Assembly (NCBI GenBank): GCA_015060105.1
Contig: SUZD01000010.1
Location: 5,503-69,502, forward strand
Source: Rikenellaceae bacterium
Lineage (GTDB): Bacteria; Bacteroidota; Bacteroidia; Bacteroidales; Rikenellaceae
Reading direction: 5' to 3'
DNA: 64,000 bases
Positions 13,339 through 60,054 of this stretch are shown in pieces (the stretch's first letter is position 1; the number at the start of each line of letters is the position of its first letter). The position numbers were made by a program, and so were the translations under genes. Under the pieces are notes generated by a model. It was not told the DNA's origin and did no database searches. It saw only the letters and a list, made by a program, of their open reading frames with translations.

Positions 13339-13415
<77 letters not shown>

Positions 13416-13518: not shown

Positions 13519-14454
13519 ATGACTCCCCGAATAAGTGTAATAATTCCCGTCTATAATGCCGAGCAATTTTTGGCGCAATGTGTCGATAGCGTGTTGGCGC
13601 AAAATGGCCTCGATTTCGAAGTGTTGCTCATCAATGACGGAAGCCGCGATCGCAGCCTCGAAATATGCCAAAATTATGCTGCGCAGGACCCGCGAGTAAG
13701 GGTGTTTGATAAGCCCAACGGAGGTGTTAGTTCGGCTCGAAATATGGGCTTGGATAATGCGCTCGGAGAGTGGGTTGTGTTTGTTGATGCCGACGACGGT
13801 TTGGTGCCGGAAGCGTTCTCGGTGCTTGCTCCGCATCTTGCTGATAATGATGTTGTTCGCTTCTCGTCACGGGATATTTTTGCCGACGGAGGAGTTCGTT
13901 ACCGTCGCCTTACTCCTGCCGCAAATCGTGACGAATCTTTTGCCCAAGTTATTGGTCACAGATCGATTTGTGCGGCTTGGAGTGGAGTGTTTCGTCGTGC
14001 GATTTTCGAGCAGCACAAAGTCCGTTTCAGCACCCAATTAACCTATGGCGAAGATTGGCTTGTTTTGGCGACAATTCTGTTCCATAGCAGCAAAGTTGTG
14101 ACGCTTCACGATGCACATCTCTACATCTATAATCGAGGTAATGATACGAGTTGTACCAACACTATGACGAGTGGAAAATTGATACAATCGATGTTGGTTG
14201 TGCGGATGTTTCGTGAGATGGTGGGCGAGGGGTGTTATGTGCGCGAGTTGAGCCACTCGCGTTGTCGCCGAGTGGGAATGTTGATTAAGCATTGTGGTCA
14301 CGCCCAAACTGCGCGCGAATTATTTGCCGTGCGCGACAGGATTGATATGCTGACGCTCAAAGATATAGTGACTTCGAAACTGCATTTGAGTCTGCGCTTC
14401 CGACTATTACGATTTTGGATTAGGTATCTTGCTTTTGCAGGGGAAGTTGCCTAA
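13519..14454 (+). CDS. Glycosyltransferase family 2
   Basis: MTPRISVIIPVYNAEQFL..LINDGSRD..VDADD. I chose the ATG at 13519, because the track start 13396 lies inside the tRNA and terminator. Confidence 0.8.
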   Translation: MTPRISVIIPVYNAEQFLAQCVDSVLAQNGLDFEVLLINDGSRDRSLEICQNYAAQDPRVRVFDKPNGGVSSARNMGLDNALGEWVVFVDADDGLVPEAFSVLAPHLADNDVVRFSSRDIFADGGVRYRRLTPAANRDESFAQVIGHRSICAAWSGVFRRAIFEQHKVRFSTQLTYGEDWLVLATILFHSSKVVTLHDAHLYIYNRGNDTSCTNTMTSGKLIQSMLVVRMFREMVGEGCYVRELSHSRCRRVGMLIKHCGHAQTARELFAVRDRIDMLTLKDIVTSKLHLSLRFRLLRFWIRYLAFAGEVA

Positions 14455-14587
14455 CAAGGTGATTTCTGCGTTGTCCTCCGATTCGCAATCCTCACATACG
14501 CCGAGTATGCTGCGGTTGCTCATCAGTCGTCCGCCTTGAAATCCCACTTGTTATACAACTTCTGGTGTAGGTAAGGTGATTTCTGCG
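14443..14587 (+). repeat. Nested-hairpin intergenic repeat, locus A (one unit plus a partial second left arm), subfamily 1
   Basis: GAAGTTGCCTAACAAGGTGATTTC...TCCTCACATACGCCGAGTATGCTGCGG...GAAATCCCACTTGTTATACAACTTCT, then AAGGTGATTTCTGCG repeated at 14573-14587. The core is shared with loci B, C and D. Confidence 0.85.
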
Positions 14588-14600
14588 AAATGTGAATATA

Positions 14601-14634
14601 AAAGGACTGTCACAAATTGGACAGTCCTTTTTTT
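14601..14634. terminator. Bidirectional terminator between GT2 (+) and gadC (-)
   Basis: Perfect 10-bp stem AAAGGACTGT/ACAGTCCTTT with T-runs on both strands. It overlaps the gadC stop codon. Confidence 0.8.
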
Positions 14635-16105
14635 ACTTTTTACTCTCGTTGGAGAAGGGTGCAAATTCGGCTTTCGGGTCGCGCCACGAGGGCTTACGCA
14701 TAGCGTAAATCACAAGTGGTATGACGACCATAACCACACAACCGATTATCAGCACCGAGTACCATACAGCATTGCTTCCGGTGGCTATCTGTCCGGGTGG
14801 CACAAAACTCAAAACAAATGCCAGCAGCGAGCCGAGAAAACCGACGCCGCCAATAAGCCACATCACTCCATTTCCTTTGCCTCGGCCCAAGCGGAAAGGT
14901 CGCGCCGTTGAACGCATCTTGTAACGCAAAGCGATGGCCGCTGCGAACATCAGCATATACATTATAAGATACAGCAAGATAGTGAGTTGCGACAATATCT
15001 GGTAGAACGATTGCACCGAGGGCATAATCACAAAAAGCAGTGCCAAAAGCGATACAATTCCGCCTTGTACCAACAGGATATTTCGTTGGACTCCGCGTTT
15101 GTTGGTGCGTTGGAAGAAGGGGGGTAAATAGCCTGCACGTCCAACCATAAAAATACCTTTTGATGGGCCGGCAACCCAAGTCAAAACGCCCGCCAAAACT
15201 CCGAACATCAGCGCAATGGCGATTATCGGGCCCGCCCACGAGATGTGGAAGTGGCGGAAATAGTTGTCAAATCCGATGAGCAGAGATTGTGTCAGGCTGA
15301 TGTCTTTGGCGGGTATGATGAAGCCCAGCGAAAAGGTGCCTAATACAAAGATACACACCGTGATAATGGAGCCGATGATGATGGCTCGAGGATACCCTTT
15401 TGATGGATTTTCGACCTCCATAACGTGCACACCCATCATCTCCATTCCCGCGTAGAACAGGAAGATACTGCTTGCCAAAACCAGATTGTCGAACTTCGAT
15501 AAGTCGGGTAGAAAACCTTGCGACATATCCATATTGTTGTGGCCTCCCGTTGCGATGTAGATTGCGCCCAGCACAATCAGCAGACCGGCGGGGATAATGG
15601 TGCCAATCATACCGCCCCACTTACTGATTTTGCCGACCCAACTGAGTCCTTTCAGTGCGATGAAGGTGGCGACCCAATAGATTGCAAGCACCACGACGAT
15701 TGTGAATAGTTTGCCCGATGCGAGTTCCATATCGTGTGTCTCGTTGCTGCCGATAAACGCCAACGAAACGGCACCGAAGGTCAAAACCGTAGGATACCAG
15801 ATGGTCGATTCAATCCACTGCAACCAAATTGCAAGGAAGCCTGTGCGGGCTCCAAAAGCCTCGCCAACCCAGCGAAAAACACCGCCCTGCTTGTCCGAAA
15901 ACATCGCAGCAAGTTCGGCAGCAACCATCGCCGTAGGTATCAGAAAGACAATGGCAGCAAACAGATAGTAGAAGGCCGATGAAGGGCCATAAACAGCCTC
16001 GGCAGGCAAACCTCGAAGGCTCACAACTGCCGTCACATTCATAATTGCGAGGGTCATTACGCTCAACTTGAAGCCGCGACCAACGCTCGATTTATCACTG
16101 CTCAT
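14633..16105 (-). CDS. gadC: Glutamate:GABA antiporter (APC superfamily)
   Basis: 490 aa with about 12 TM helices and an APC-type N-terminus. It lies immediately downstream of glutamate decarboxylase. Confidence 0.85.
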   Translation of the reverse strand: MSSDKSSVGRGFKLSVMTLAIMNVTAVVSLRGLPAEAVYGPSSAFYYLFAAIVFLIPTAMVAAELAAMFSDKQGGVFRWVGEAFGARTGFLAIWLQWIESTIWYPTVLTFGAVSLAFIGSNETHDMELASGKLFTIVVVLAIYWVATFIALKGLSWVGKISKWGGMIGTIIPAGLLIVLGAIYIATGGHNNMDMSQGFLPDLSKFDNLVLASSIFLFYAGMEMMGVHVMEVENPSKGYPRAIIIGSIITVCIFVLGTFSLGFIIPAKDISLTQSLLIGFDNYFRHFHISWAGPIIAIALMFGVLAGVLTWVAGPSKGIFMVGRAGYLPPFFQRTNKRGVQRNILLVQGGIVSLLALLFVIMPSVQSFYQILSQLTILLYLIMYMLMFAAAIALRYKMRSTARPFRLGRGKGNGVMWLIGGVGFLGSLLAFVLSFVPPGQIATGSNAVWYSVLIIGCVVMVVIPLVIYAMRKPSWRDPKAEFAPFSNESKK

Positions 16106-17698: not shown

Positions 17699-20566
17699 TT
17701 AGCCAATGATGCCGCCGGTCGAACCGCCGAACTCAACATCCTCGCCTTCTTCCTCGCCACCTTCGCCACCGTCGAGGCCAAGACCGCAAGTGTAGAAGTT
17801 AACAACGGTTACATTACCCGCTGCATCAACCAATGCGAATGCGATGATGTTACCACCCCATTTAGCGTCGTATTCGAGCATACCATTGAAGGTGTACTCA
17901 ACGCCCTCGGTAACGATACGGTAAGCACCGTTCTCGCTTGCGATAGGAGTATCGCCATCAGCAAATTTGAGAGCCACTGTGCTGCTAACCTCGTTGGGAT
18001 GAGCCGAGTCACCAAGGTTCAACAACCAAGCGGTCGAACCAGCGGGGATACCCGATACCGTGAAGGTAGCGGTACCACCAGCAACATTCTCCGAAACGAG
18101 AGTCAAAGCGGGAGTAGTAGGCTCGGGACCGGGAGTGTCACCACCTTGTGTGCCGTTCATACCAACACCGCAAGTGTAGAAATCAACAACAGTTACATTG
18201 CCCGCTGCATCAACCAATGCATAAGCGATGATGTTACCACCCCATTTAGCGTCGTATTCGAGCATACCATTGAAGGTGTACTCAACGCCCTCGGTAACGA
18301 TACGGTAAGCACCGTTCGCGCTTGCGATAGGAGTATCGCCGTCAGCGAATTTAGCAGCAACGTCGCTATTTACGTTCTCGGGTTGAGCCGAGTCACCGAG
18401 GTTCAACAACCAAGCGGTCGAACCAGCGGGAACGCCAGCGATAGTGAAGGTTGCAGTACCACCAGCAACGTCCTCCGAAACGAGAGTCATAGCGGGAGTA
18501 GTAGGCTCGGGACCGGGAGTGTCACCACCACCTACATACTCTTTGGTACCGTTGAATACGCCCTCGCCGCTGCAATAAGCAGCAACTACGATAGGAGTAT
18601 TGTCTGCGCCAACCTCAACTACGAGGATGTTTACAGCGTACTCTGCATAAGCTGCGTCGTAAGCCTCCATGTACTCGTAAGCGAACTCTTGACCGCTCTC
18701 GGTAACCTCTTTCTTTGCACCTGCGATGCTACCTACGGTACCATCATACTCCTCGAAAGCAAAGTCAATCATAGTAGCCAAAGTTGCAGGGCTACCTACG
18801 GTACGAAGGATATAAGTTTTAACAGCGCTGTTTACATTGTTTACTTTAACGGTAGCCGAAGTCGAAGTGGGATCCGAAAGGTTCTCGGTTACAACTTCAA
18901 GAGTAGCACCTTTGTAAAGTTCGCCATAGAGGTTGTCGCCGGGCTCAATGGGAGTGTCACCACCTACATTTTTGTCACCGGTACCTGCCATGTAGTAGTC
19001 GCTGATGCTGAATTTGCCATCTTGGTCAAGAGTAACGGCAGCAACAATCGAACCACCCCAGCTTGCGCTGTAAGGAAGCATAAGGTTGTAGTCGAAAGTC
19101 TCACCTACGATGAACGAAACGGGTTTGAACGAACCGTTAAGGCTCTCGTCAGTACCGTCCCACTCTTGGAGGTTGCTCTCGATAGCCTCTGCCAACTCAC
19201 CCTCGGTAGTCTCGTAGAAGAAATACAACCAAGCTTGAGCTACGTTCTCGCTCTTCGATGCGATGCTAACAGTAGCGGTAACATTCTCCTCGGTTACGGT
19301 ACCCTCTTTAACCGAAATGGTAACCTCACCGGTACCGGTCATATCAACTTTGCTGGGAGTCACCTCCTCGGCTTTCGATGCGAAGAACTCTTTCTCGCTG
19401 TCCCAAAGAGTTACAACGTTGGTCAATGCGCTGGGAGTGCCATCTGCGTCGAATGCCATTGCGATAATAGCGTACTCCAAACCGGGAACATAGATCTCCG
19501 ACTCGATAGTAACCGAACCATTCTCAACGTCGTACTCTTGCCACATGTAAGAAGCCTCCTCCGAGTTCATGATGAAGTCGAGGGTTGCTTTGTTGTTGTT
19601 ATAGTCAACTTTCGAAGTGAAGTAAATACGAACTTTCTCGGTCTCCTCGTTGGTGGTGAGGGTGTAAGTAAGTTTGTAGAGGTCGGTTTGCTCCTCGATA
19701 GTAGCAGCGGTCACAGCACCTTTACCGTTCAACTCAGGACGGGTAGTGTGAACTTTTTGGTAAGCGATGTTACCAATCTTGCCGTCTTTGATAGCGATAG
19801 CGTAGATAACATAGTCGGTGTCAATACCAAGGTCGCCATAGAAAGTAACAGCCTCTTCGCCTGTGCAGATGCGGGGAGTTGTAGCGGCGTTTGCTGCGAG
19901 GTAGGTTTTGATCTCATCGTCAGTCATCTCGTCAGCGTTGAATTGATCTTGGGGGTTTACAGCCAAACGGTAGCCGGTGATGATACGGCACTCGCTGTCG
20001 GTAGTAAGGTCAGCGGTAACTTTGTTCATACCAACAACAACATTGTTGAGTTGGATATCAACGGTGCCATCAACAACAGCTGCGGGAGCGGTGAAAGTCT
20101 CGGTGTAAACTTTGTAGTTGCCTTGTGCATCCTCTGCATAAACAGCAACAGTGTACTTTTGACCCGAGAGAATAACGATACCGGTGTTCTCCTCTTTGGT
20201 TGTCAAACCGTCTTTTACGAGGTCCATCTCTGTCCAAGTTTTGCTCTCGGTAGCCGAGTTGTATTGAACATAAGGATAGCTCTCGTTGGGGTTCAACGAG
20301 TTTTTAGCAGCGTTAACGAAACGAGTTGTGTCGAAAGCCTCTGCGAAAGTAGCACCAGCGACGTAGCGAACGCACTCTTTGTATTTGAGTACCTCGGCGT
20401 CAAAGCTCAATGCAGTGACATTCTTCAATACAAGCGATACCAACTCGCCATTGCCCGAAGGCTCGTCTGTACCTCCACCACCGGGTGCAGGCTTGGGGTC
20501 GTTACAACCCACAACGCTCAGCAGAACAACTGCCAAAAGCGTCCACAATTTTGCAATGTGTTTCAT
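17699..20566 (-). CDS. Large repeat-containing surface lipoprotein, function unknown
   Basis: 955 aa with signal plus lipobox LLSVVGCNDPKP. Beta-rich modules are separated by GGDTP(G)PEP linkers. The acidic tail ends EDVEFGGSTGGIIG. The + ORF 17999-20581 is a shadow. Confidence 0.8.
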   Translation of the reverse strand: MKHIAKLWTLLAVVLLSVVGCNDPKPAPGGGGTDEPSGNGELVSLVLKNVTALSFDAEVLKYKECVRYVAGATFAEAFDTTRFVNAAKNSLNPNESYPYVQYNSATESKTWTEMDLVKDGLTTKEENTGIVILSGQKYTVAVYAEDAQGNYKVYTETFTAPAAVVDGTVDIQLNNVVVGMNKVTADLTTDSECRIITGYRLAVNPQDQFNADEMTDDEIKTYLAANAATTPRICTGEEAVTFYGDLGIDTDYVIYAIAIKDGKIGNIAYQKVHTTRPELNGKGAVTAATIEEQTDLYKLTYTLTTNEETEKVRIYFTSKVDYNNNKATLDFIMNSEEASYMWQEYDVENGSVTIESEIYVPGLEYAIIAMAFDADGTPSALTNVVTLWDSEKEFFASKAEEVTPSKVDMTGTGEVTISVKEGTVTEENVTATVSIASKSENVAQAWLYFFYETTEGELAEAIESNLQEWDGTDESLNGSFKPVSFIVGETFDYNLMLPYSASWGGSIVAAVTLDQDGKFSISDYYMAGTGDKNVGGDTPIEPGDNLYGELYKGATLEVVTENLSDPTSTSATVKVNNVNSAVKTYILRTVGSPATLATMIDFAFEEYDGTVGSIAGAKKEVTESGQEFAYEYMEAYDAAYAEYAVNILVVEVGADNTPIVVAAYCSGEGVFNGTKEYVGGGDTPGPEPTTPAMTLVSEDVAGGTATFTIAGVPAGSTAWLLNLGDSAQPENVNSDVAAKFADGDTPIASANGAYRIVTEGVEYTFNGMLEYDAKWGGNIIAYALVDAAGNVTVVDFYTCGVGMNGTQGGDTPGPEPTTPALTLVSENVAGGTATFTVSGIPAGSTAWLLNLGDSAHPNEVSSTVALKFADGDTPIASENGAYRIVTEGVEYTFNGMLEYDAKWGGNIIAFALVDAAGNVTVVNFYTCGLGLDGGEGGEEEGEDVEFGGSTGGIIG
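17760..18530 (-). repeat. In-frame tandem duplication (2 x 384 bp) inside the lipoprotein gene
   Basis: The period is 384 nt. A 93-nt run is identical at 17841-17933 and 18225-18317. Confidence 0.9.
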
Positions 20567-21662: not shown

Positions 21663-22943
21663 ATGACACAAGACAAACAAATTTTTGACCTCATCGCCGA
21701 CGAGCGTAGCCGTCAGATGAAGGGTATCGAACTTATTGCTTCCGAGAACTTTGTGAGCGACCAAGTGATGGCTGCTATGGGCTCGGTTTTGACCAACAAG
21801 TATGCCGAGGGCTACCCCGCAGCGCGATATTATGGCGGTTGCGAGGTGGTTGACCAAGTGGAAAAACTCGCTATCGAGCGTCTGTGCAAGCTCTACGACG
21901 CCGAGTATGCCAACGTGCAACCCCACTCGGGCGCACAAGCAAATATGGCGGTTTTCTTCACCTGTCTGAAACCCGGCGATACCTTTATGGGTCTTGACCT
22001 TTCGCACGGAGGTCACCTTTCGCACGGTTCGCCCGTCAATATGTCGGGTATGTATTTCAATGCCGTAGGTTACAAACTCGACGAGGCAACAGGTACCATT
22101 GACTACGATGCAATGGAGGCTTTGGCGATGGAGTGCAAACCCAAACTTATCGTCGGAGGTGCTTCGGCATATAGCCGTGAGTGGGATTACAAACGTATGC
22201 GCGAGATTGCCGACAAGGTAGGTGCTTTGCTTATGGTCGATATGGCTCACACCGCAGGTCTTATTGCTGCCGGTCTGCTCGACAACCCCGTGAAATATGC
22301 TCACATCGTAACCTCGACAACTCACAAAACACTTCGTGGTCCTCGTGGCGGTATTATCCTGATGGGTAAAGATTTCGACAACCCTTGGGGTAAAACCACT
22401 CCCAAAGGCGAGATTCGCAAGATGTCGGCTCTGTTGAACTCGGCTGTATTCCCCGGTATTCAAGGCGGTCCGTTGGAGCACGTTATCGCAGCCAAAGCGG
22501 TTGCTTTTGGCGAGGCTCTCGAACCCTCGTACAAAGAGTACCAAATGCAAGTCAAGAAAAACGCAGCCGCAATGGCCGAGGCATTTATCAAACGCGGCTA
22601 CAAGATTGTGAGTGGCGGTACCGACAACCACCTTGTGCTTGTTGATTTGCGCACCAAGTTCCCCGACCTCACAGGTAAAGTTGCCGAGAAAGTGCTTGTT
22701 GCTGCCGACATCACAACCAACAAGAATATGGTTCCTTTCGATAGTCGCTCGCCGTTCCAAACATCGGGATTGCGTTTTGGTGCTCCTGCCATCACTACTC
22801 GCGGTCTTAAAGAGGACCAAATGGACAAAATCGTCGAGCTTATCGACCGAGTTCTTGCCGACCATGAGAACGAGGAGAACATTGCAGCCGTTCGCGCCGA
22901 GGTTAATGCGATGATGGCGCAATATCCTTTGTTTGCTTGGTAA
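21663..22943 (+). CDS. glyA: Serine hydroxymethyltransferase
   Basis: [35 protein letters not shown] used the ATG at 21663, because the track start 21465 would overlap fabG. Confidence 0.97.
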
Positions 22944-23087
22944 ACGAAGCCTTGGCCGAAGCCGCATAATTAGGTGATTTCGGCGTTATGCTTACGCGGG
23001 GAGTCCTCACATACGCAAAGTATGCTGCGGCTCCCCGCGTTTCGCATGCCTTGAACTCCCACTAATTATGCGACTTCGCGGTGATTT
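22944..23087 (+). repeat. Nested-hairpin intergenic repeat, locus B (one complete unit), subfamily 2
   Basis: It starts 1 nt after the glyA TAA. Arms are CGAAGCCGCATAATTAG / CTAATTATGCGACTTCG, the middle stem is ACGCGGGGAG/CTCCCCGCGT, and the core is TCCTCACATACGCAAAGTATGCTGCGG. Confidence 0.9.
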
Positions 23088-30553: not shown

Positions 30554-33500
30554 ATGGCAAAACAACTTTTTTCTTATGTGAAGAGCCTGTTGATGAGTGC
30601 ATTGGTGCTCTCGTCTGTGGCATTTGTGGGTTGCGAAGAGGAAGGTCAAGGTGATGGTCCTGGCGGTCTTCCTACATTGGCAATCGTAACCGAGGAGGGT
30701 GAAGAGGTTAGTGAGCTGACCATTAACGCTCCTATCGAAGGTATAACTTACACCTTCGGAGTTAAAACCAACGCTACAAGTTGGAACGCTACTTGTGAGG
30801 CCGACTGGGTGGAGCTTACAAAGAGCAATGGTGTTGTAACCGTAACAGTTGCCGCTAATGAGGGTGACGTTCGTAGCACCGAGATTAGCCTTACCACTTC
30901 GTCGCTCAAACGCGTTATCACCGTGCTTCAAGACGGCGAGATGGATATTGATGCAATCTACTACGAGGCGTTTGGTGCCGTTGAGGCAACCAAAACTTAC
31001 GGCTCGACAGGTACCTATTGGCCCTATGTTGACCAATTCTTCGATGACGGCAAGATGACCGTTGCAGGTGAGGGTGCATCTGCTGTGACTTACTATGGTA
31101 ACAGCGTATCGGTTCGTCCTACAATGGCTTCGAGCGATTATGAGGGTGCTTCGGGTGTGAACTCGTGCTTGTTCAGCAACGGTAAAGCCGACGCATATCT
31201 TATCGTTGAGGGTATTGCTTTGGGTGGTGCTACTCAATTGCAATTGTCGTTTGGTGTTAGCCACAGCGCAGGTCAAAACGTATATACTACCATGAAAGAG
31301 AGCGATATCGAGGTTTCGATTAGCGCAAATGGTAGCGACTATGTGGCAGTTCCTGTAACACTCCCCACCGTTGACGCTTGGGGTGTGGCAACTTCGGAGT
31401 TTGCTGTTTCGTCGGAGGTTTCGACACTCTACATCAAATTCAACGTTCCTGTGAACGCCGAGGACCAAAGCGCAATCCGTGTTGATGATATCAAACTCGT
31501 TGAGGGTGGCGCAGGTGCATTGGTTGATTTGGATACTTCGTCTTCGGTCGAGGTTACTCTTCCCACCACTGCACTGGATACCTTCCAAGATACCTTCCAA
31601 ACCGTAACTAACTACGAGGTTTACAAATCGGAGAACTGGTGGTTCACTTCGAACGACCGCAAATATCCTGCTACACCCAGCTTGGGCTGGCACGGTCGTA
31701 CCTATGGCACCGACGCTTATATCTCGATTGCTCCTTACCAAAGTTCTCAAACCGAGGTTTTGGCATTCGCAGGTACCTTGCTGAATGTGAAAGCGGCTGC
31801 CAACAAGACTTTGGCTTTCCAATTGGCTATCTACTACCAAACCGAGGACCAAAGCAAACTCGAATTGGTTGCTTCGACCGACTTTGCAGGCGACGTTACT
31901 ACTGCCACTTGGGAGGTTGTTCAAGATTTGACATTCCCCGCTGCTTCGACCATGAACGAGTGGAAAGACTACTCGGTTGATTTGTCGAAATATGCCGAGA
32001 ACGACAAAGTTTATGTTGCTTGGCGTTATACCGGTAAGAGCAACACCTACCGTTTGGATAACGTAGCGTTCAACGCCGAGATTAGCGACGAGCCTATCGT
32101 TGATGAGACTTCGGTTTCGATTCCTTTCGTGCTCGATGGTACCAAAGGTAAAGAGCAAATCGATACTATGGACGGTGTAACCCAATTCGGTTTGGGCGAG
32201 AACTACAAGAATGGTAACATCAAGTTCGGTTCGGACCAAGCTTGCATCTGCATCCACGCAAACGCTGCTATCGGTACTGCAATGGTTGAGGCTTATGCAA
32301 CCGGTGACGCTACTACCAACGCATTCGAGTTCTTGGGCTCGGTTGATGGCGTAGAGTACACCCGTATCGACAGCGTGACTATGAGCGAGGGTAAGAATGT
32401 CGTTCAACAAGTTTCGACAACAAGCGAGATTCCTTCGGACGTTCGCTTCATCAAGATTGTATATCACAAAGTATCGGGTAGCGGTACCAATGCTTCGGTT
32501 AGCAAAATCGTTTTGGCTGCTCCTGGTGGTAGTGTTGAGGTTCCCGAGATTAAGGTTTCGCCCGAGAAGATTGAGGCTCCTGCCGAGGGTGCGACTGCAA
32601 CTCTTACTTATGAGCTTAAAAACTTTATTGGCGAGGTTGTTCCCGAGTTCGCTTGCGAGGCTGATTGGGTAACTATTGGCGAGGTTTCGGAAGGTGCAGT
32701 TGAGGTTACCGTTGCCGAGAATACAGGCGCAGAGGGCCGCGAGGCTACCATTACCGTTACCGTTGCTGGTATCGAGGGTAGCGTTGAGGTTGCCGTATCG
32801 CAAGTTGGTACCGAGTATGTTGAGCCCGAGACTTTGAGCGTTGCCGAGGTTGTTGCTCTGTATGACGCAGACAATATCGAGGCTATCAATGCAGCGAAGA
32901 TGACCGGTTATGTTGCTCTCGTTGCCGAGGACGCATCGCAAGGTATTTCGGCTCGTTCGTTGTTGGTTGTCGATAACACTGGCGCAAAGAATAGTGGTCT
33001 TATGCTCTACAACATTACAGGCACAGGTCTTGCTGCCGGAGATAAAGTTACCGTTGATCTTTCGACTGCCGAGATTGCAACCTACAACGGTTTGCGTGAG
33101 TTGAAAGGCTTCACCGTTAGCCAATTTACCAAAGTCGAGGGCGAGAGCGCAACTATCGCTCCCGTTGAGATTGCAGCTGCCGAGTTGGGCGACTACCAAT
33201 CGATGTTGGTTTCGATTAAAGATGTTCAGGCTGTTGAATCGGCCGTAGGTTATGTATTCTGTACAGCAGATAAGGGTTATACCACCAAATTTACCGATGG
33301 CACTACCGAGATTGCAGTATATTGTACCAAACAAATGACCGCCTTGAACGATGTTGAGGTTGGCGCACAAACCGCTACCATCACAGGTTGGGTTGGTTGC
33401 TACAATACTCCTCAACTTATTCCCACCGTTGAGAGCGCAATGCAATTTGCTGCAACTGCACAACCTTCGTTAGCTGTTACTCCTACTTCGGTAGAGGTTG

Positions 33501-35194
33501 TAGCCGCAGGTGCAACAACAACTCTTACCTACGAGCTTAAAAACTTCGTTGGCACAGCCGTTCCCGAGTTCGCTTGCGAGGCTGATTGGATTACCATTGG
33601 CGAGGTTTCGGAAGGTGCTGTTGAAGTTACCGTTGCCGAGAACACAAGTGAGGAGAGCCGTGAGGCTACCATTACCGTTACCGTTGCAGGTATCGAGGGT
33701 AGCGTTGAGGTTGCCGTATCGCAAGTTGGCACCGAGTATGTTGAGCCCGAGGCGTTGAGTGTTGCCGAGGTTGTTGCTCTGTATGATGCTGGTAATATCG
33801 AGGCTATCAAGGCTGCCAAGATGAGCGGTTATGTTGCCCTCGTTGCCGAGGACGCATCGCAAGGTATCTCGGCTAAATCGATTCTCGTAGTTGATAACAC
33901 AGGCGAGAAGAATAGCGGTCTTATGCTCTACAACATCACAGGCACAGGTCTTGCTACCGGCGATAAAGTTACCGTTGATCTTTCGACTGCCGAGATTGCA
34001 ACCTACAACGGTTTGCGCGAGTTGAAAGGCTTCACCGTTAGCCAATTCACCAAAGTCGAGGGCGAGAGCGCAACCATCGCTCCCGTCGAGATTTCGGCTG
34101 CCGAGTTGGGCGATTACCAATCGATGTTGGTTTCGATTAAAGATGTTAAGGCTACCGACGCTGTGGTAGGTACTACCTTCTGTACCTCGTCCAAGAACAC
34201 CTCTTCGAAATTTACCGATGGCACCAACGAGTTCGTGGTTTATTGTAGCAAGGCTATGACCGAGTTGAACGATATGATTATCGGCTCGCAAACCGCTACT
34301 ATTACCGGTTGGGTTGGTTGCTACAACACTCCTCAACTTATCCCCACCATCGAGAGCGCGAAATTGTTCGAGAATAAAGAGGGTCTTATCCTTCTTACTC
34401 CCGCCGCTATCGAGATGACAGCCGAGGGTGGTTCGCAAAATGTAACTTTCGAGTTGCAAAACATCACCTCGACCGACCTCCCCACCTTCACAAGCGACGC
34501 TGCTTGGGTAACCTTTGGCGAGGTTTCGGCAGAGGGCGTTACCGTAACCGTTGCTGCTAACGAGGTAACCGAGGCTCGTTCGGCAACCGTTACTGCAACT
34601 CTTGGCGAGACAACTGCAACTTTGACCGTAACCCAAGAGGCTCTTGTTTTGGCAAAACTGCTCTACTCGACAGGCTTTGAGAGCGAAGAGGGCTTCACCG
34701 CAGGTCAAGTATATAACAACGAAGAGGCTGCTTTGAGTGGAGCTGATGGCCAACAATGGTCAACGATTTTCGGTACACCTTCGACAACCAAACCAATCGC
34801 AGGCACACAATCAATGCAAATGCGTTGCTACAAGGATAAAACAACGGCCGGAAGTTCAACTATGAACTTCGATTTGGAGGGTGTTTCGTATGTAGAGTTC
34901 GATGCACAAAACACTAACGGCGTTAATGTTCTTGTTCAATACTCGACCGATGGTGGCACAACCTGGACAGGCGACCAAACTTACACTTTGAATACACAAG
35001 CAGCAACCTACACTTACAATGTAAGTGAGGAGGGTGTAACAGCACGAGTTAAGTTCACTTTGGTTATCCCTGCATCGTTGTCTTCGACCAGTCGTTTATA
35101 TATCGACAATGTTAAAGTTTATGGCGCAGCACCTACCGTAGAGGAGGGTGGCGACATCGACTTTGGCGGTTCGGTAGGTTCGATTGTTGAGTAA
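30554..35194 (+). CDS. Giant surface lipoprotein: BACON-like modules, beta-sandwich (choice-of-anchor-J-like) modules and two OB/DUF5689-like modules
   Basis: 1546 aa with lipobox AFVGC followed by EEEGQGDG (acidic surface-export-type signal). The W..C.ADWV..T..VTV..N......A.ITV BACON-like pattern occurs 4 times. The tail is EEGGDIDFGGSVGSIVE. The minus ORFs 30494-33463 and 33470-34756 are shadows. Confidence 0.85.
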   Translation: MAKQLFSYVKSLLMSALVLSSVAFVGCEEEGQGDGPGGLPTLAIVTEEGEEVSELTINAPIEGITYTFGVKTNATSWNATCEADWVELTKSNGVVTVTVAANEGDVRSTEISLTTSSLKRVITVLQDGEMDIDAIYYEAFGAVEATKTYGSTGTYWPYVDQFFDDGKMTVAGEGASAVTYYGNSVSVRPTMASSDYEGASGVNSCLFSNGKADAYLIVEGIALGGATQLQLSFGVSHSAGQNVYTTMKESDIEVSISANGSDYVAVPVTLPTVDAWGVATSEFAVSSEVSTLYIKFNVPVNAEDQSAIRVDDIKLVEGGAGALVDLDTSSSVEVTLPTTALDTFQDTFQTVTNYEVYKSENWWFTSNDRKYPATPSLGWHGRTYGTDAYISIAPYQSSQTEVLAFAGTLLNVKAAANKTLAFQLAIYYQTEDQSKLELVASTDFAGDVTTATWEVVQDLTFPAASTMNEWKDYSVDLSKYAENDKVYVAWRYTGKSNTYRLDNVAFNAEISDEPIVDETSVSIPFVLDGTKGKEQIDTMDGVTQFGLGENYKNGNIKFGSDQACICIHANAAIGTAMVEAYATGDATTNAFEFLGSVDGVEYTRIDSVTMSEGKNVVQQVSTTSEIPSDVRFIKIVYHKVSGSGTNASVSKIVLAAPGGSVEVPEIKVSPEKIEAPAEGATATLTYELKNFIGEVVPEFACEADWVTIGEVSEGAVEVTVAENTGAEGREATITVTVAGIEGSVEVAVSQVGTEYVEPETLSVAEVVALYDADNIEAINAAKMTGYVALVAEDASQGISARSLLVVDNTGAKNSGLMLYNITGTGLAAGDKVTVDLSTAEIATYNGLRELKGFTVSQFTKVEGESATIAPVEIAAAELGDYQSMLVSIKDVQAVESAVGYVFCTADKGYTTKFTDGTTEIAVYCTKQMTALNDVEVGAQTATITGWVGCYNTPQLIPTVESAMQFAATAQPSLAVTPTSVEVVAAGATTTLTYELKNFVGTAVPEFACEADWITIGEVSEGAVEVTVAENTSEESREATITVTVAGIEGSVEVAVSQVGTEYVEPEALSVAEVVALYDAGNIEAIKAAKMSGYVALVAEDASQGISAKSILVVDNTGEKNSGLMLYNITGTGLATGDKVTVDLSTAEIATYNGLRELKGFTVSQFTKVEGESATIAPVEISAAELGDYQSMLVSIKDVKATDAVVGTTFCTSSKNTSSKFTDGTNEFVVYCSKAMTELNDMIIGSQTATITGWVGCYNTPQLIPTIESAKLFENKEGLILLTPAAIEMTAEGGSQNVTFELQNITSTDLPTFTSDAAWVTFGEVSAEGVTVTVAANEVTEARSATVTATLGETTATLTVTQEALVLAKLLYSTGFESEEGFTAGQVYNNEEAALSGADGQQWSTIFGTPSTTKPIAGTQSMQMRCYKDKTTAGSSTMNFDLEGVSYVEFDAQNTNGVNVLVQYSTDGGTTWTGDQTYTLNTQAATYTYNVSEEGVTARVKFTLVIPASLSSTSRLYIDNVKVYGAAPTVEEGGDIDFGGSVGSIVE
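32560..34400 (+). repeat. In-frame tandem duplication (2 x 921 bp = 307 aa) within the giant lipoprotein gene
   Basis: CTCTTAC..GAGCTTAAAAAC occurs at 32601 and again at 33522. Each unit is BACON-like plus OB/DUF5689-like. Many of the differences are synonymous third-position changes. Confidence 0.9.
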
Positions 35195-40234: not shown

Positions 40235-41449
40235 ATGAGATTCAATAAGATACTTTTTGCTTCGGCATTGGCTCTGTTGAGCCTGTCGGTAAGCAGTTGT
40301 TACGAGAAGTTCGAAACACCGAGCGCCAAGCCCGTTTACACCTCCGAGGACTTCGCCGATATGGACCACTTGACCATCAAAGAGGTTAAGGATTTGTTCT
40401 ATGCGGAGTACACAATGGGAAGTACGGGTGTGGGCAAGAGCCTCACTTTGGACGAGGCGTTCTGGCAAGGCAAAGATATGGCCGACACCAAACACTATAT
40501 CTCGGGAAAGGTTATCAGCTCCGATGTCGAGGGTAATGTCTATAAAACCCTCTATATCCAAGACGAAACGGCCGCTATCGAGATTAAGTTGGGTAAGACC
40601 AATATCACCAACGAGATGCGCCCCGGTATGCGCGTGTTTGTGAAGATTGACGACCTCTGCATCGGCTCCTATCGCTATATGTTGAGCCTCGGACTCACTC
40701 CGAGTGAGGACGATATTGCCAACAAATACGCGAACTCCAATATGGACCTGCAAGAGATTATCAATGCACACGTATTTGTGGGCGAAATGGAGGGTTTGAC
40801 CGCCGCCGATACTCTTGTGGTTAGCGAGGGTACCCAACTCTCCGATTACGATTTGGGCCGTTTGGTGCGCTTCGAGAAACTGACCTCGACCTATGGCCGC
40901 TATAAAGGCGACTATGGCGAGGGTTATAGCAGCAGCGATGTCTATCCTTCGTACCTCGAAAGCAAAACCGACGAGAGCGGCGAAGATGTCTATAACAACT
41001 GGACATACGACCAAGTTATCACTGCCTGGAAGGAGTATTACAAGGCCGATAGCGTTTACAAAATCGAGATGGAGAACTACGCTAAACTCATCGAGGAGTG
41101 GCGCAAAGAGCTCGAAACCAACCCCTCGGCCGTAATGCCTACCGCTCCCAATATGCCCGCCGTTCCCAAATACGACGAGCCGAGCACCCTTGAATACCCC
41201 ACTTGGGCATTCAATAATGGTCTGCAACGCTACTATGGTTCGGCTCTCTTCCTGTTGGGCGCCGAGGAGTACCCCTATGTTGTGCGTTCGAGCGGCTATG
41301 CCAAATTTGCGCAACGCGAGCTTACACCCGACGGCAAGAGCATACAACTGACAGCCCTCTACTGCAAGTATTGTTCGAGCAGTGGTGGTTACGTCAAATA
41401 TCAGTTGTTGGTTAATAAGTGGGCGGATATCGTTCCCCTCGACTATTAA
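40235..41449 (+). CDS. Lipoprotein in the SusD position but unrelated to SusD; DUF5689-like (OB-type barrel) N-domain
   Basis: 404 aa with lipobox VSSC, starting 7 nt after the TBDR gene. ISGKVISSDVEGNVYKTLYIQDETAAIEIKL..GMRVFVKIDDL matches the pattern of the modules in the giant protein. The family name is from memory. Confidence 0.7.
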   Translation: MRFNKILFASALALLSLSVSSCYEKFETPSAKPVYTSEDFADMDHLTIKEVKDLFYAEYTMGSTGVGKSLTLDEAFWQGKDMADTKHYISGKVISSDVEGNVYKTLYIQDETAAIEIKLGKTNITNEMRPGMRVFVKIDDLCIGSYRYMLSLGLTPSEDDIANKYANSNMDLQEIINAHVFVGEMEGLTAADTLVVSEGTQLSDYDLGRLVRFEKLTSTYGRYKGDYGEGYSSSDVYPSYLESKTDESGEDVYNNWTYDQVITAWKEYYKADSVYKIEMENYAKLIEEWRKELETNPSAVMPTAPNMPAVPKYDEPSTLEYPTWAFNNGLQRYYGSALFLLGAEEYPYVVRSSGYAKFAQRELTPDGKSIQLTALYCKYCSSSGGYVKYQLLVNKWADIVPLDY

Positions 41450-41692
41450 CCGAAGCCTTAACGAAGCCGCATAATTAGGTGATTTCGGCGTTATGCTTGG
41501 GGCTCAAATGCTCACATACGATTAGTATGCTGCGCTTTGAGCCCCTTCGCATGCCTTGAACTCCCACTAATTATGCGACTTCGCGGTGATGTTTTGGGCG
41601 GGCGTAGTCCTCACATACGCAACGTGTGCTGTGGCTCCCAGCGTTTTGCATGCCTTGAACTCCCGCTAATTATGCGACTTCGCGGTGATGTT
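41450..41692 (+). repeat. Nested-hairpin intergenic repeat, locus C (two tandem units), subfamily 2
   Basis: It starts directly after the TAA of the preceding gene. Unit 1 has the middle stem GGGGCTCAAA/TTTGAGCCCC. Unit 2 is degenerate and shares the right arm CTAATTATGCGACTTCGCGGTGATG. Confidence 0.9.
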
Positions 41693-41738: not shown

Positions 41739-41775
41739 AAAAGGTTGTCCTATGGTGCAGGGCAACCTTTTATTG
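41739..41775 (+). terminator. Rho-independent terminator of the nuclease/TBDR operon
   Basis: 12-bp stem AAAAGGTTGTCC/GGGCAACCTTTT (one G-U pair) followed by a T-rich tail. Confidence 0.7.
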
Positions 41776-46741: not shown

Positions 46742-49700
46742 ATGAAAAAACTATCCATTTTTGCACTTGCAGCGCTTGTGTTCGCTGCGTGTACTAAACC
46801 TACACCCGAGCCCGAGGCTCCGGATCCCGTAATGACTGTCGATGCAACCGAGTACGAGGCTGCTAATGCTGCCGACGAGTTCATCTTCAATATTGACGCC
46901 AATATCGATTGGTATGTAACTACCGAGGCTGAGTGGCTTGACATCGCTCCCGCAGAGGGTAATGGCGTTTCGGCTGTTGTTGTTACTATCGCTGCTAACG
47001 AGACTTATGATGCTCGCGAGGGCGTGATTACCGTTGCTGCTTCGGATCCCGAGGCTGCTGCCGTTGTTGGCGAGAAAACTATCACTATCAGCCAAGCCGA
47101 GGCTAATGCCCTGATTGTTGGCGAGTCGAAATACGAGGTTGCAGCCGAGGCTACCACCATCGAGATTAAAATTTCGACTAACGTAGAGTACACCGTAGAG
47201 TGCTCGGCAGATTGGCTGACCCAAGCAGAGGCTACTCGTGCTTTGGAGGAGAAAACTATCGTTATCAATGTTGCCGAGAATACCGAGTATGACAATCGCG
47301 AGGGTATTGTAACCATCAAGAGCGAGCTCGGTTCGGACAAAGTAAAAGTTATCCAAGAGCAAAAACGTGCCGTTGTTTTGGGCGAGACTACGTTTAATGT
47401 TGAGGCCGAGGCAAACGTTATCGAGGTACCTTTGAAACGTAACACTATCTTCCGCACTACCACTTCGGTTGATTGGATTGAGCGCATTCGCGAGACTCGT
47501 GCTTTGGAGGACGACGTTGCCAAATTCCAAATCGCAGCCAATGAGGCAGCTGAGGCTCGTACAGGTTATATCTACTTCGAGACCGACGAGAGCAAAGACA
47601 GCGTTACCGTAAACCAAGCAGGTAGCCTCAATGCTCCTGTTGAGATTACCGATGCAAGATTTGCAAAATTCTTGCGCGACAACTTCGACACCAACGAGGA
47701 TAAAGCGTTGAGCATCGCCGAGTTGCAAGCTGTTACCGAGATTTCGTTCCCGAAATGTCCTACTTCGACTTATGTTTGGACAACTATTAGCGCTGCTAAT
47801 CTTTCGGGTATCGAGTATATGACCAACCTCGAAACTTTGGATATCACAGGTAGCAAGGTTACTTCGCTTGACCTTTCGAACAATACCAAGCTTACTTCGA
47901 TTACCGCAGCTGATACCAAACTTACCGCTTTGGACGTTTCGATGCTTCCCGAGCTGACCTATTTGAACGTTGGTGCATCGCCTATCGAGTCGCTCGACCT
48001 GTCGAACAACACCAAACTTACATATTTGTGTGTTTCGGGTTGTGCTTTGAAAGAGCTCAATGTGTCGGCTTTGACCGAGCTTACCGTTTTGGATTGTGCT
48101 TACAACAACCTTACTTCGCTCGACGTTGCAGCTAATACCAAACTCGTTGGTTTGTACTGTAATGGTAACAAACTTACCGAGCTTAATGTTTCGGCATTGT
48201 CTTCTTTGGCTCGTTTGAACTGCGAACACAACCAACTTGCCGCTTTGGACGTAACTGCTAATAGCAACCTTACCGTTCTTAACTGCGGTCGCAACAAACT
48301 TTCCAGCCTCAAAGCAACAGGCCTTGCCAACTTGACTATCTTGTCGGCTCCCTACAATATGACTTTGAGCTCGCTTGATTTGACCGGTTTGTCGAAACTT
48401 CGTAGCTTGACTTTGCCTCACACCGGCGTTACCTCGATTTCGACCGCAGCTTGCCCCGAGTTGGTACAAGTGAACTTGAATGAGAGCCCCTATTTGGAGA
48501 CTTTGGATATCTCGGCTTCGACCAAGATGACAACTCTTGTGGTTGATGGCACATCGATTAAGACTTTGGATGTTTCGGTTCACAAGAACTTGGGTTGCTT
48601 GTTGGCAAAAGATCCTCAAAACGAGACTATTACCACTACTCCGTTGGAGAGCATCACTCTTCCCGACGATATGAACCTCAATAAGATTCCCGCTGCTTAC
48701 ATCAAATTCGAATCGACCGAGTGGTTGGGCGGCTTTATTCCCGCGCCCAAACTCATTGATTTGAGTGCAAATGGTACTGCTAACTGCTACGTTGTAAGCC
48801 AGGAGGATTGCGAGTACAAGTTCAAAGCAACTGTTAAGGGTAACGGCGTGACCGCTTTGTCGGGTGATGCAACTGCTATCGCTCCCACCAAAGCTCGTCT
48901 GTTGTGGGCTCAAAACCAAACCACAACTGACCCTGCAACTATTGGTTATCCCCAAGAGTATGGTGCAAGCAAGGCTGCTAACTTGGTTATTCCTGAGTCG
49001 GTAACTTTGGGTGAAGATGGTTACATCTACTTCAAGACAGGTGCCGATATGCCTAACGGTAACGTTGGTATCATCGCAACTGACGACGACGATAACATTC
49101 TTTGGAGCTGGCACTTGTGGGTTGTTAATGGTTACGACCCCGCAGCAACCGATATTCTTGTTAAGACCAAAGGTGTGGATACCTACTTCATGGACCGTAA
49201 CATCGGTGCATTCGTGAACTACGCAACCGTTGCAGCTCCCGATAACAATACTCACATTGCAAGCCGTGGTTTGTACTACCAATGGGGCCGTAAAGACCCG
49301 TTCATTGGTCACCAAAGCGCCCGCGGTTATGCAACACAAGCGTTGTTGTTCAATGCAGACGGAAGCAGTAGTAAACTTTACTCTTGCTATGGTGGCAATG
49401 CTGTATTCCAAGGCGTAGCACCCGAGGACGCTGCAAATAGCGACGATATCAATGCTATTATGGCATGGACCGCAGCTAATCCTCACCGCTTTGTCAAGGG
49501 TGTCGGCGCTAACGGTTACACTTGGGTTGCAACAACCAAATCGATTGCAGCCGCTGAGGACGCAGAGTGGACAAAACTTTGGGGTAACCCCGCACTTGAT
49601 GAGTCGTTGTACGACAAGGGTGGTGTGAAGACTATGCACGACCCCTGCCCCGTAGGCTATCGCGTACCTTCGACCGGTCACTATATCTTCATCACTTCGC

Positions 49701-50581
49701 ACGGCGACCAATCGTCGAACGGCTATGGCAACAACTTGCGTAACTGGCAGTTCAACTGCGTTGAGAAGATTTATGATGCAGATGGTAACCCCACAGGAAA
49801 GACCGATACAGGTTGGGCAAAATCGGCTCCCTTCGGTTTGCACTTCTACGCAAATGGTGTGAAGACCGCTTCGCCTGATGCTCAAAGTGGCGTTCAAGAC
49901 TATGGTGTTCTTCCCGCAGACCAAAGCGTTATCTACTTCCCCGCACAAGGTTGGATTCCCTATGGATTTACTTGCAGCAGCAATGATAACGAGTTGCAAT
50001 ACCAAACCAACCGTCCTGCTAAGGGTAAGATCAACTGCAACCGTATGATGTGCTCGAACGATGGTAACTTCTACTACGGTTGGACAAACGTTAACTGGGG
50101 TCAAGCAATGGGTCTTCCCGTTCGTTGTATCCGCGACGAGGCGGCTGATTTTGGCGGCAGCGAGGGTGATGACGATGTAGAGGATACAAGCGGTTACCTG
50201 ACTGCCAGCAACTTCACTTGGAACCCCGAGAAAAAAGAGGGTGCTACCGTTGAAGATGCAGGCGATGGTTATGTTAAGATTACCTTCACCGTTAAACAAC
50301 AAGGTTTCTGGGTTACTAACGACACTCAAACATCGTCTTCGACTGTTGCAGATATCGTTATCGAGGATATCAAAACTTTGTGCAATGGCGAGCCCGTCGA
50401 GATTACCAAAGGTTGTGGTTTCTACGCCGTTATTGATGGCACGGGAACATACTTTATGACCAGCACCGACAAAGCCAAAATTTACTCCGAGGGTGTTCAA
50501 TTCCAAACCTCGAACTCGGGTTATGGCGACCAACCTCTGCCTTTGACTATCCTTATGAAAGCCAAGCTGACTTTCAAGTAG
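46742..50581 (+). CDS. Giant lipoprotein: BACON-like x3-4, about 12 leucine-rich repeats, FISUMP/DUF1566-like lectin-type domain, C-terminal beta domain
   Basis: 1279 aa with lipobox VFAAC. W..I.P..G.....V.I..N BACON-like modules, 21-22-aa LDxSxNxxLxxLxCxxNxLxx repeats, then NCYVV, ILWSWHLWV, MDRNIGA, LYYQWGRKDPF and DPCPVGYRVPS motifs. The minus ORF 46751-50533 is a shadow. Confidence 0.85.
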   Translation: MKKLSIFALAALVFAACTKPTPEPEAPDPVMTVDATEYEAANAADEFIFNIDANIDWYVTTEAEWLDIAPAEGNGVSAVVVTIAANETYDAREGVITVAASDPEAAAVVGEKTITISQAEANALIVGESKYEVAAEATTIEIKISTNVEYTVECSADWLTQAEATRALEEKTIVINVAENTEYDNREGIVTIKSELGSDKVKVIQEQKRAVVLGETTFNVEAEANVIEVPLKRNTIFRTTTSVDWIERIRETRALEDDVAKFQIAANEAAEARTGYIYFETDESKDSVTVNQAGSLNAPVEITDARFAKFLRDNFDTNEDKALSIAELQAVTEISFPKCPTSTYVWTTISAANLSGIEYMTNLETLDITGSKVTSLDLSNNTKLTSITAADTKLTALDVSMLPELTYLNVGASPIESLDLSNNTKLTYLCVSGCALKELNVSALTELTVLDCAYNNLTSLDVAANTKLVGLYCNGNKLTELNVSALSSLARLNCEHNQLAALDVTANSNLTVLNCGRNKLSSLKATGLANLTILSAPYNMTLSSLDLTGLSKLRSLTLPHTGVTSISTAACPELVQVNLNESPYLETLDISASTKMTTLVVDGTSIKTLDVSVHKNLGCLLAKDPQNETITTTPLESITLPDDMNLNKIPAAYIKFESTEWLGGFIPAPKLIDLSANGTANCYVVSQEDCEYKFKATVKGNGVTALSGDATAIAPTKARLLWAQNQTTTDPATIGYPQEYGASKAANLVIPESVTLGEDGYIYFKTGADMPNGNVGIIATDDDDNILWSWHLWVVNGYDPAATDILVKTKGVDTYFMDRNIGAFVNYATVAAPDNNTHIASRGLYYQWGRKDPFIGHQSARGYATQALLFNADGSSSKLYSCYGGNAVFQGVAPEDAANSDDINAIMAWTAANPHRFVKGVGANGYTWVATTKSIAAAEDAEWTKLWGNPALDESLYDKGGVKTMHDPCPVGYRVPSTGHYIFITSHGDQSSNGYGNNLRNWQFNCVEKIYDADGNPTGKTDTGWAKSAPFGLHFYANGVKTASPDAQSGVQDYGVLPADQSVIYFPAQGWIPYGFTCSSNDNELQYQTNRPAKGKINCNRMMCSNDGNFYYGWTNVNWGQAMGLPVRCIRDEAADFGGSEGDDDVEDTSGYLTASNFTWNPEKKEGATVEDAGDGYVKITFTVKQQGFWVTNDTQTSSSTVADIVIEDIKTLCNGEPVEITKGCGFYAVIDGTGTYFMTSTDKAKIYSEGVQFQTSNSGYGDQPLPLTILMKAKLTFK
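47800..48590 (+). repeat. Leucine-rich-repeat coding array (about 12 units of 63-66 bp)
   Basis: Periodic LD(L/V)S..T.L..L.. units are read directly from the translation. Confidence 0.8.
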
Positions 50582-59309: not shown

Positions 59310-59786
<477 letters not shown>

Positions 59787-59789
59787 GAA

Positions 59790-60008
59790 GAAGTTGCCTA
59801 ACAAGGTAATTTCGGCGTTACGCTCAAACGGGAAATCCTCACATACGCCCAGTATGCTGCGGTTTCCCGTTTTTCGCAAGCCTTGAAATTCCTCTTGTTA
59901 TACAACTTCTATGAAAACAGCCTAACAAGGTAATTTCGGCGTTACGCTTACGCGGGGAGTTCTCACATACTCTGAATATGCTGCGGTTTCCCGTTTTTCG
60001 CAAACACT
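59790..60008 (+). repeat. Nested-hairpin intergenic repeat, locus D (complete unit plus a truncated chimeric unit), subfamily 1
   Basis: It starts 4 nt after the atpK TAA. Unit 1 runs 59790-59910 with stem AAACGGGAAA/TTTCCCGTTT. Unit 2, from 59920, has left half ACGCGGGGAG and right half TTTCCCGTTT and lacks the right outer arm. Confidence 0.9.
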
Positions 60009-60015
60009 TCTAACA

Positions 60016-60054
60016 AAATAGAGGCTATCCCATCGGGACAGCCTCTATTTTATT
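60016..60054. terminator. Bidirectional terminator between atpK (+) and ilvE (-)
   Basis: AAATAGAGGCT-A-TCCC-ATC-GGGA-C-AGCCTCTATTT flanked by A and T runs. Confidence 0.8.

Follow-up and report, generated by a model that had tools for sequence, protein, structure and literature searches.

Small palindromic repeats of bacterial genomes are usually dismissed as lineage-specific junk. The repeat family treated here was found in a stretch of 64,000 nucleotides (nt) from a Rikenellaceae bacterium of the Bacteroidota (assembly GCA_015060105.1, contig SUZD01000010.1, positions 5,503 to 69,502 of the forward strand), hereafter the window, where it forms nested hairpins of ~120 nt behind the stop codons of genes. 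The closest described systems are the ERIC and Correia elements. The ERIC or IRU sequences (~127 bp) are TA-flanked MITEs (miniature transposable elements with inverted repeats) that are co-transcribed at the 3′ ends of genes, with the orientation of the element deciding the ribosome-dependent exposure of an RNase E site (PMC2229807, PMC3184786, PMC10969869). They have been reported only in Enterobacteriaceae and Vibrionaceae (PMC10969869). The Correia elements of Neisseria (NEMIS or CREE, ~105-155 bp) are co-transcribed with neighbouring genes, and their hairpin is a substrate of RNase III (PMC2229807, PMC10969869). The REPs are 20-40 nt in length and carry a GTAG or CGTC tag (PMC3733652). 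The present family is in kind with the orphan MITEs ERIC and Correia; it is new in detail, namely in its Bacteroidota host, an apex kept across phyla, stems that co-vary freely and a docking at stop codons that can be quantified.

The element marks the ends of coding regions, in a one-sided manner and nearly always in a single polarity. Genes were called with a self-trained codon model and every array was oriented by the strand bearing CTCACATAC, while the base of the hairpin was taken from the core-to-stop distance together with an alignment, A5. Throughout the Rikenellaceae genomes other than that of the window, the gene on the 5′ side lies on the strand of the element in 47 arrays as against 8 on the opposite strand (p = 8e-8). 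In 37 of the 47 same-strand cases the distance from the end of the stop codon to the core is 44-57 nt, and alignment A5 places the first paired base of the outer arm ~49-51 nt 5′ of the core; the hairpin therefore begins at the stop codon or overlaps it. At several loci (L034, L040, L058, L117, L119 and L120) the palindrome includes the TAA or TAG. At the 3′ end of the element, none of the 30 convergent or antisense-side stops is located 40-65 nt from the core. The docking rule is also obeyed by about 12 of 17 further copies, which were found by a model without the exact pattern. The docked genes have core or housekeeping functions, encoding GAPDH, a class II aminoacyl-tRNA synthetase, RpoN, an RlmH-type SPOUT methyltransferase, IMPDH, GMP synthase, SHMT and subunit K of the V-ATPase. 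An earlier note on this DNA had proposed an orientation and position bias from four loci. The window alone cannot decide the orientation claim, as three of its four loci sit between convergent genes; the independent genomes lend it strong support.

The archetype of the family follows glyA in the window. Its outer arms, CGAAGCCGCATAATTAG / CTAATTATGCGACTTCG, form 16 pairs with a single C-A mismatch, the middle stem, ACGCGGGGAG / CTCCCCGCGT, pairs throughout, and the 27-nt apex holds CATAC/GTATG; all three tiers read as they had been described earlier. Compared with shuffled sequences, the four full units of the window give folding z-scores of -2.5 to -8.6. Judged from the aligned sequences, compensatory changes back all three tiers of the hairpin, with the test itself covering stems and arms: the copies were gathered by a pattern that fixes the apex, which therefore lies outside its reach. 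Among 25 collinear aligned Rikenellaceae copies, compensatory changes occur at 31 of 46 pairs, including 19 of the 22 outer-arm pairs, against 21.1 ± 2.0 in shuffles (0/500 reach 31). In the same copies 86% of cells are paired, versus ~41% when the partners are slid. For the middle stem, 105 copies from many genomes could be compared, and all 12 variable pairs co-vary, with 431 compensatory cells versus 181 ± 11.5 after shuffling and a pairing of 80.8% versus at most 46% when slid. The pattern of conservation is thus an apex invariant across phyla and stems that vary while their pairing is kept.

Empty orthologous loci, together with docked proteins that keep their native C-termini, show that the element was inserted. 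None of 80 orthologous glyA loci (77-88% amino acid identity) carries it, and the SHMT of the window ends in FAW* as its orthologues do; synteny around glyA is not conserved on either side. At atpK, the element is missing from 10 loci of relatives with 83-89% identity, where an ordinary terminator stands in its place, whereas the more distant L053 (~60%) is filled, which points to independent insertions or losses. The proteins of the filled locus L124 and the empty locus L010 end at the same residue, with the element directly after TAA in the former and a terminator after TAG in the latter. Copies can also persist: L107 and L045, from two species with 85.5% identity in the flanking gene, are both filled at an orthologous locus. 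A comparison at the strain level showed no polymorphism, as three samples share one array behind the DUF5689 gene and a 98%-identical relative has an unchanged atpK array. A further before-and-after comparison (L001-L007 and L128) is provided by a Campylobacter Mu-like phage, represented by seven viral contigs with one copy apiece. In the related phage CAM-P21, whose site is empty, the interval from the portal stop to the next start reads TAAAAATG. The filled phage has an insert of 139 nt with TAAAAAT on each side, and the copy (e.g., L007 8388-8533) exactly fills the gap from the portal stop to the start of a gpF-like gene.

Within the window, the degenerate apical-core pattern CTCACATAC-N5-RTRTGCTGYG has six matches, all on the + strand (starts at 14491, 23006, 41511, 41610, 59838 and 59962), where shuffles expect 0.06. 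A covariance model of the 49-nt apical domain, run with filters off, finds the identical six copies and nothing further on either strand. The content amounts to four full units, two partial units and one 15-nt fragment, in agreement with the seven full or partial units counted in the earlier note, and the six + cores with a blank minus strand uphold its claim of one orientation at all four loci. The upstream genes are GT2, glyA (SHMT), DUF5689 and atpK (ATP-synt_C, V-ATPase subunit K), with stop codons at 14452-14454, 22941-22943, 41447-41449 and 59784-59786, respectively. It had been stated that every locus starts at, or within 4 nt of, a TAA. The stop codons are as described, but the main hairpin begins 14 nt past the stop at the glyA and DUF5689 loci, the gap being a conserved CGAAGCCTT extension.

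The first unit, U1 (14443..14570, +), is a full nested hairpin with subfamily B arms, GAAGTTGCCTAACAAG / CTTGTTATACAACTTC, and an apical core at 14491-14514. The GT2 stop falls within its 5′ arm, and a 15-nt fragment of a further unit, GGTGATTTCTGCGAA, which corresponds to the inner 5′ part, lies 3′ of it (14575..14589, +). The archetype, U2 (22944..23087, +), belongs to subfamily A and occupies the entire convergent gap between glyA and a gene for a ComF-like PRTase, as had been claimed. It consists of a conserved 5′ extension, ACGAAGCCTTGGC (22944-22957), the hairpin (22958-23078) and a 3′ tail, CGGTGATTT; its apical core, CTCACATACGCAAAGTATGCTGCG, is at 23006..23029 (+). U3 (41450..41590, +; core 41511-41534) is a full subfamily A unit that begins directly 3′ of the DUF5689 stop. 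It is followed by the partial unit U4 (41591..41692, +; core 41610-41633), which lacks the 5′ outer arm and inner 5′ part, has an imperfect stem and a complete 3′ arm, and scores 28.3 bits with the covariance model. U5 (59790..59910, +; core 59838-59861), a full unit of subfamily B, starts 3-5 nt past the atpK TAA. U6 (59914..60008, +; core 59962-59985; 35.3 bits) is partial and chimeric, without a 3′ outer arm. The 5′ half of its stem, ACGCGGGGAG, is that of U2, and the 3′ half, TTTCCCGTTT, is that of U5.

Beside the first locus, a tRNA gene (13339-13412, +; 61.9 bits) runs across position 13396, the called start of the GT2 open reading frame (ORF), which has a low coding score in the gene caller (7.7) and whose true start is probably further downstream. 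The window also contains several tandem repeats inside ORFs. A very large ORF (30554-35194, +) has a duplication with a 921-nt period and 80-87% identity (32573-32872 / 33494-33793 and 33287-33438 / 34208-34359), another ORF (17699-20566, -) has one with a 384-nt period (17754-18053 / 18138-18437), and a third (46742-50581, +) carries a 31-nt motif four times (47911-48256). These encode repeat-domain proteins and are unrelated to the hairpin family.

Arrays of the family typically keep a single 5′ outer arm, with the inner part and the 3′ outer arm repeated two to three times (L124 1440-1745; L100 2515-2916; window 41450-41692). The atpK array of the window is reversed from this usual form, its second unit being without a 3′ arm. 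The flanks of U2 and U3 are identical at 81 of 81 bases, yet their 10-bp stems are unrelated, and chimeras occur in U6 and, similarly, in L015. Both observations are accounted for if copies swap segments by crossing over within the conserved blocks. The family is evidently mobile, amplifies locally into short arrays and exchanges segments among its copies. A Pfam census of the 149 proteins flanking non-Rikenellaceae copies gave housekeeping functions only, with no enrichment of mobile elements, no integrase and no Y1_Tnp domain. The Rikenellaceae neighbours that were tested are likewise housekeeping genes, with no transposase, integrase or reverse transcriptase. RAYT/Y1_Tnp was absent from the 149 neighbours and the tested window genes, the scope being the 64-kb window and blocks of 8 kb.

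The + strand of the element is almost certainly transcribed as 3′ untranslated region (UTR), as follows from its placement between a stop codon and a downstream terminator. Three such terminators had been named earlier, of which the one at 14601 is recovered by a strict scan as an intrinsic terminator with hairpin and T-run (14600..14631, +), situated between U1 and a convergent amino-acid permease gene (14633-16105, -). The other two are terminator-like by eye and fail the strict rule. One lies downstream of the U3/U4 array (41739..41775, +; AAAGGTTGTCCT...AGGGCAACCTTT, then TATTG) and the other between the U5/U6 array and a convergent aminotransferase gene (60016..60050, +; TAGAGGCTATCCC...GGGACAGCCTCTA, then TTTTATTG). 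No terminator separates the sense strand from the stop codon; those of the window shield the antisense strand from the convergent genes.

The distribution of the family is broad and patchy. An exact-pattern scan, with one genome per species, returned at least 120 stretches. Among the matches listed, most are from metagenome-assembled genomes (MAGs) of Alistipes, Tidjanibacter and other Rikenellaceae; the others include Legionella isolates (L. bozemanae, L. steigerwaltii and L. resiliens), Desulfobacterales, Nitrosomonas, gamma- and alphaproteobacterial MAGs, Mariprofundus, Magnetococcales and one Clostridia MAG. Complementary stems stand beside the core in nearly all of the listed matches, many of which add an outer palindrome with GCGTT on the 5′ side and GCCTTG on the 3′ side. 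Two matches within genes (L016, L022) look like chance. The window comes from an Alistipes-like genome. Its atpK product is 99% identical to a Rikenellaceae protein, and its glyA product is at most 88% identical to those of metagenomic Alistipes. Family profiles detected no copy in ~0.5 Mb from 90 loci (L129-L218) of other Alistipes lineages, including common human-gut ones, so the element is patchy within the genus. In one Alistipes MAG (L102 424-5466), four copies occur on one strand within 5.5 kb. Three of them are docked after GAPDH, class II aminoacyl-tRNA synthetase and RpoN genes, and the fourth is an exception that lies in a divergent promoter region. A metagenome contig with a 98%-identical atpK stops inside the second unit of the array (L244 1013-1204), an instance of the repeat fragmenting short-read assemblies.

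The Rfam check suggested in the earlier note identified no family for the repeat. The window gave only the tRNA at the gathering threshold of Rfam 15, the archetype gave only chance-level matches to STnc290 and PyrC at E<=10, and the elements at 18 loci from other phyla had no match. Literature searches, both by sequence strings and by topic, turned up no account of the family.

The similarity to ERIC extends to size, a long imperfect palindrome, a strongly conserved central hairpin and the lack of a known transposase. De Gregorio et al. reportedly noted in 2005 that ERICs adjoining or overlapping stop codons prefer one orientation. A 3′ location, almost certainly transcribed, with one orientation at stop codons is likewise found in the present family, by the counts given above. 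The same docking geometry is seen in an E. coli ERIC copy between ybhI and ybhJ (L241 601-727), which starts 1 nt past the ybhI TAA, shares the strand of that gene and is separated from ybhJ by 55 nt. For sequence comparison, an ERIC consensus was validated by its matches in all 5426 E. coli genomes at ~95% identity. Its central 82 nt are collinear with the sense strand of the family: GCTGCGTT, stem, TCAC-WTAC-loop-GTAW-GCT, stem, TTC, GCCTT. Local alignments between the two score 26.0 on average, compared with 18.4 for the opposite strand, 18.7 with ERIC reversed and 19.5 ± 3.9 after shuffling. The signal is weak and orientation-specific, and its top scores (46, 41 and 41) lie above 39, the highest value among the shuffled sequences. 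No hit came from nhmmer, run both ways, nor from three sub-profiles, distant-mode BLAST or the apical covariance model R1. Membership in ERIC is therefore not established, as the profile, covariance-model and BLAST links fail and the weak collinear signal is what remains. The apices differ, CACTTAC-TTAT-GTAAGCTC in ERIC as opposed to CTCACATAC-N5-GTATGCTGCG here, and so does the host range, which for the present family comprises Bacteroidota, several proteobacterial classes, Desulfobacterota and a phage.

The Correia elements are similar as orphan MITEs with long inverted ends, and share with the family a series of short motifs in common order (CGGCGTTGC ... CTGCGG ... TTCG ... GCCTTG). They differ in an apex of GTAC-N5-GTAC and in that stop-codon docking is not reported for them. 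Membership was rejected: no unit contains their 26-bp terminal inverted repeat, TATAGTGGATTAA(C/A)..., and the family profile had no hit among Correia copies in 22 Neisseria prophage loci. With REP, BIME and REPIN-RAYT systems, the family has in common that dispersed extragenic palindromes stand often at gene 3′ ends, often in arrays, and are long-lived and vertically inherited in lineages, as here at L107/L045; in those systems the mover is an enzyme whose gene lies elsewhere. In REPINs it is the arms that are conserved and the loop that varies, the reverse of what is found here, and REP sequences are lineage-specific, in contrast to a cross-phylum apex. The earlier likening to REP/BIME or MITE-type elements thus holds for a dispersed palindromic family of REP/MITE type, but the defining features of REPs are missing, since the unit is ~120 nt with three tiers, has a conserved apex and carries no GTAG/CGTC tag at its ends.

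The explanation we favour, with moderate confidence, is that the repeat is a palindromic, MITE-like element of the ERIC/Correia kind, non-autonomous and co-transcribed at the start of the 3′ UTR, and that it would couple translation to the 3′ end of the mRNA. The family itself, its structure, mobility, one-sided stop docking, polarity and placement before terminators are observed. The element would insert just 3′ of a native stop codon with the CTCACATAC strand as sense, form the opening part of the 3′ UTR in the transcript and fold into the ~120-nt three-tier hairpin, with its base a few nt from the stop. Given this distance, a terminating ribosome should open the outer arm, which would release the distal 3′ arm; on an untranslated message, the hairpin would stay closed. 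Through the element, translation of the upstream gene would in this way bear on how the mRNA 3′ end is structured and thereby on its processing or stability. An RNA-level role had been suggested before; it is plausible and, in ERIC, has precedent.

Several observations weigh against this explanation. The bias is weaker in other phyla, where polarity is 22 versus 11 (p = 0.08) and the stop lies at 40-65 nt in 12 of 22 cases, and the phage copy runs against the usual rule, being inverted with respect to its operon. The phage junctions are compatible with a target-site duplication of TA or TAAAAAT, and U2 and U3/U4 are flanked by TA...TA, but a duplication was not established for the copies in general; the TGA-docked copies L050 and L075 show that a simple TA-target rule is not universal. 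TGA accounts for 5% of background stops, so its avoidance carries little information. As RNA, 101 of 133 copies fold better on the antisense strand, with a mean difference of 6.1 kcal/mol, and in the four window units the margin is 5-8 kcal/mol. This edge persists with DNA parameters (123 vs. 8 of 131) and when a tetraloop takes the place of the core (101 vs. 29). It stems from the mismatched positions, where the antisense strand has G.A and the sense strand C.T (696 vs. 194 overall; 140 vs. 22 and 69 vs. 12 in two alignments), and not from wobble pairing: G-T wobbles favour no consistent strand (399 vs. 389 overall; 55 vs. 83 and 44 vs. 22 in the alignments). The G.A internal loops are purine-rich and are inherited features of the family rather than independent events. 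There is no consistent sign of selection for folding of the sense-strand RNA, and to that extent the RNA-level role suggested earlier goes without support. A 24-nt apex invariant across phyla also exceeds the needs of a passive stabiliser and suggests a specific partner. Finally, transcription, the interplay of ribosome and hairpin and any effect on mRNA fate are what we infer.

The strand asymmetry and the conserved apex bring a DNA-level mechanism seriously into play, and we regard it as possible, if less than probable. The element would then be a single-stranded DNA hairpin of REPIN/BIME or IS200/IS605 type with no RNA role, its apex bound by a single-copy HUH enzyme (RAYT/TnpA-type) or other hairpin-binding enzyme that is encoded elsewhere and moves it, and polarity and docking would arise from strand-specific insertion into single-stranded gene ends. 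An apex fixed across phyla with stems free to change so long as they pair fits such binding, and the better folding of the gene-antisense strand, chiefly with DNA parameters, the gathering of G.A oppositions on that strand and the neutrality of the wobbles between RNA strands fit as well. The arrays are BIME-like and, as for REPINs, no enzyme stands beside any copy. No RAYT, TnpA or other candidate was seen in scans that covered the window and neighbours rather than whole genomes, however, and the three-tier unit is far from a tagged REP in size. If it is the template strand of the docked gene that folds, this would moreover be neither the strand that transcription displaces nor, where genes are co-oriented, the lagging-strand template, and recognition of the stop codon is left unexplained. 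The minus strand (GTATGTGAG) might instead be the product itself, as a stand-alone or antisense small RNA gene. Its better folding, its RNA-like purine-rich loops and the fact that in the phage it is the mRNA sense strand speak for this. The idea is nevertheless very unlikely, because docking is set by the gene on the opposite strand, no conserved flank extends past the hairpin, terminators of the window stand between the convergent genes and the element, and no promoter-like site placed to drive it was found in a scan of the window, which was not modelled on Bacteroidota promoters.

A large hairpin at gene ends with A-tract and T-tract at its base could also act as a transcription terminator or insulator. 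In Rikenellaceae copies, a run of A4+ occurs at the 5′ base in 42 of 79 (19 in the control) and of T4+ at the 3′ base in 32 of 79 (20 in the control), and the strict scan finds no other terminator in the glyA/comF gap that U2 fills. In the window, no copy has a T-run following its 3′ arm, which places the copies outside the definition of an intrinsic terminator, and a separate terminator or terminator-like hairpin lies downstream at three of the four loci. As termination needs neither a conserved 24-nt cross-phylum apex nor one-sided docking, this function is unlikely. It is scarcely credible, and largely refuted, that the elements are integron-like attC sites, with upstream gene and element forming a cassette. 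An attC site is also an imperfect palindrome (60-140 nt) that starts from or in the stop of the upstream ORF, is oriented as that ORF and has a better-folding bottom strand, and the series of gene, element, gene, element in L102 recalls a cassette array. Subfamily B starts with GCCTAAC, which fits the R″ box (RYYYAAC), but it ends with GTTATAC, which breaks R′ (GTTRRRY), and subfamily A and most subfamilies have neither box. Pairing runs past the boxes, and it is the apex, the variable part of attC, that is conserved in place of the R and L boxes. The docked genes are core housekeeping genes, orthologues exist without the element, and no integrase is found among the neighbours; the cassette idea was rejected on account of these genes, the missing integrase and the broken boxes.

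A wider and decidedly tentative reading, which we consider rather improbable, joins the family, with or without ERIC and Correia, into one ancient cross-phylum class of hairpins. A conserved factor would recognise the apex AG-CWUAC-loop-GUAWG-UGA, and placement, at the very first nucleotides behind a stop codon, would be coupled to the end of translation or transcription. If true, this would be a way of choosing targets that is new among bacterial mobile elements.

The 24-nt apex of the family is unchanged between carriers as distant as gut Rikenellaceae, isolates of Legionella and a phage of Campylobacter, and the family is not represented in Rfam. Its precise one-sided docking offers a concrete handle on the target choice and the mover of orphan MITEs such as ERIC and Correia. 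In carrier genomes, the element may follow several percent of genes, as suggested by four loci in 64 kb of the window and four copies in 5.5 kb of L102. It shapes the 3′ UTRs of core genes, including those for GAPDH and V-ATPase as well as glyA, guaA/guaB and rpoN, and it also breaks metagenome assemblies. Bacteroidota are not known to have Hfq or ProQ. The element offers a testable system for translation-coupled control of the mRNA 3′ end in this phylum.

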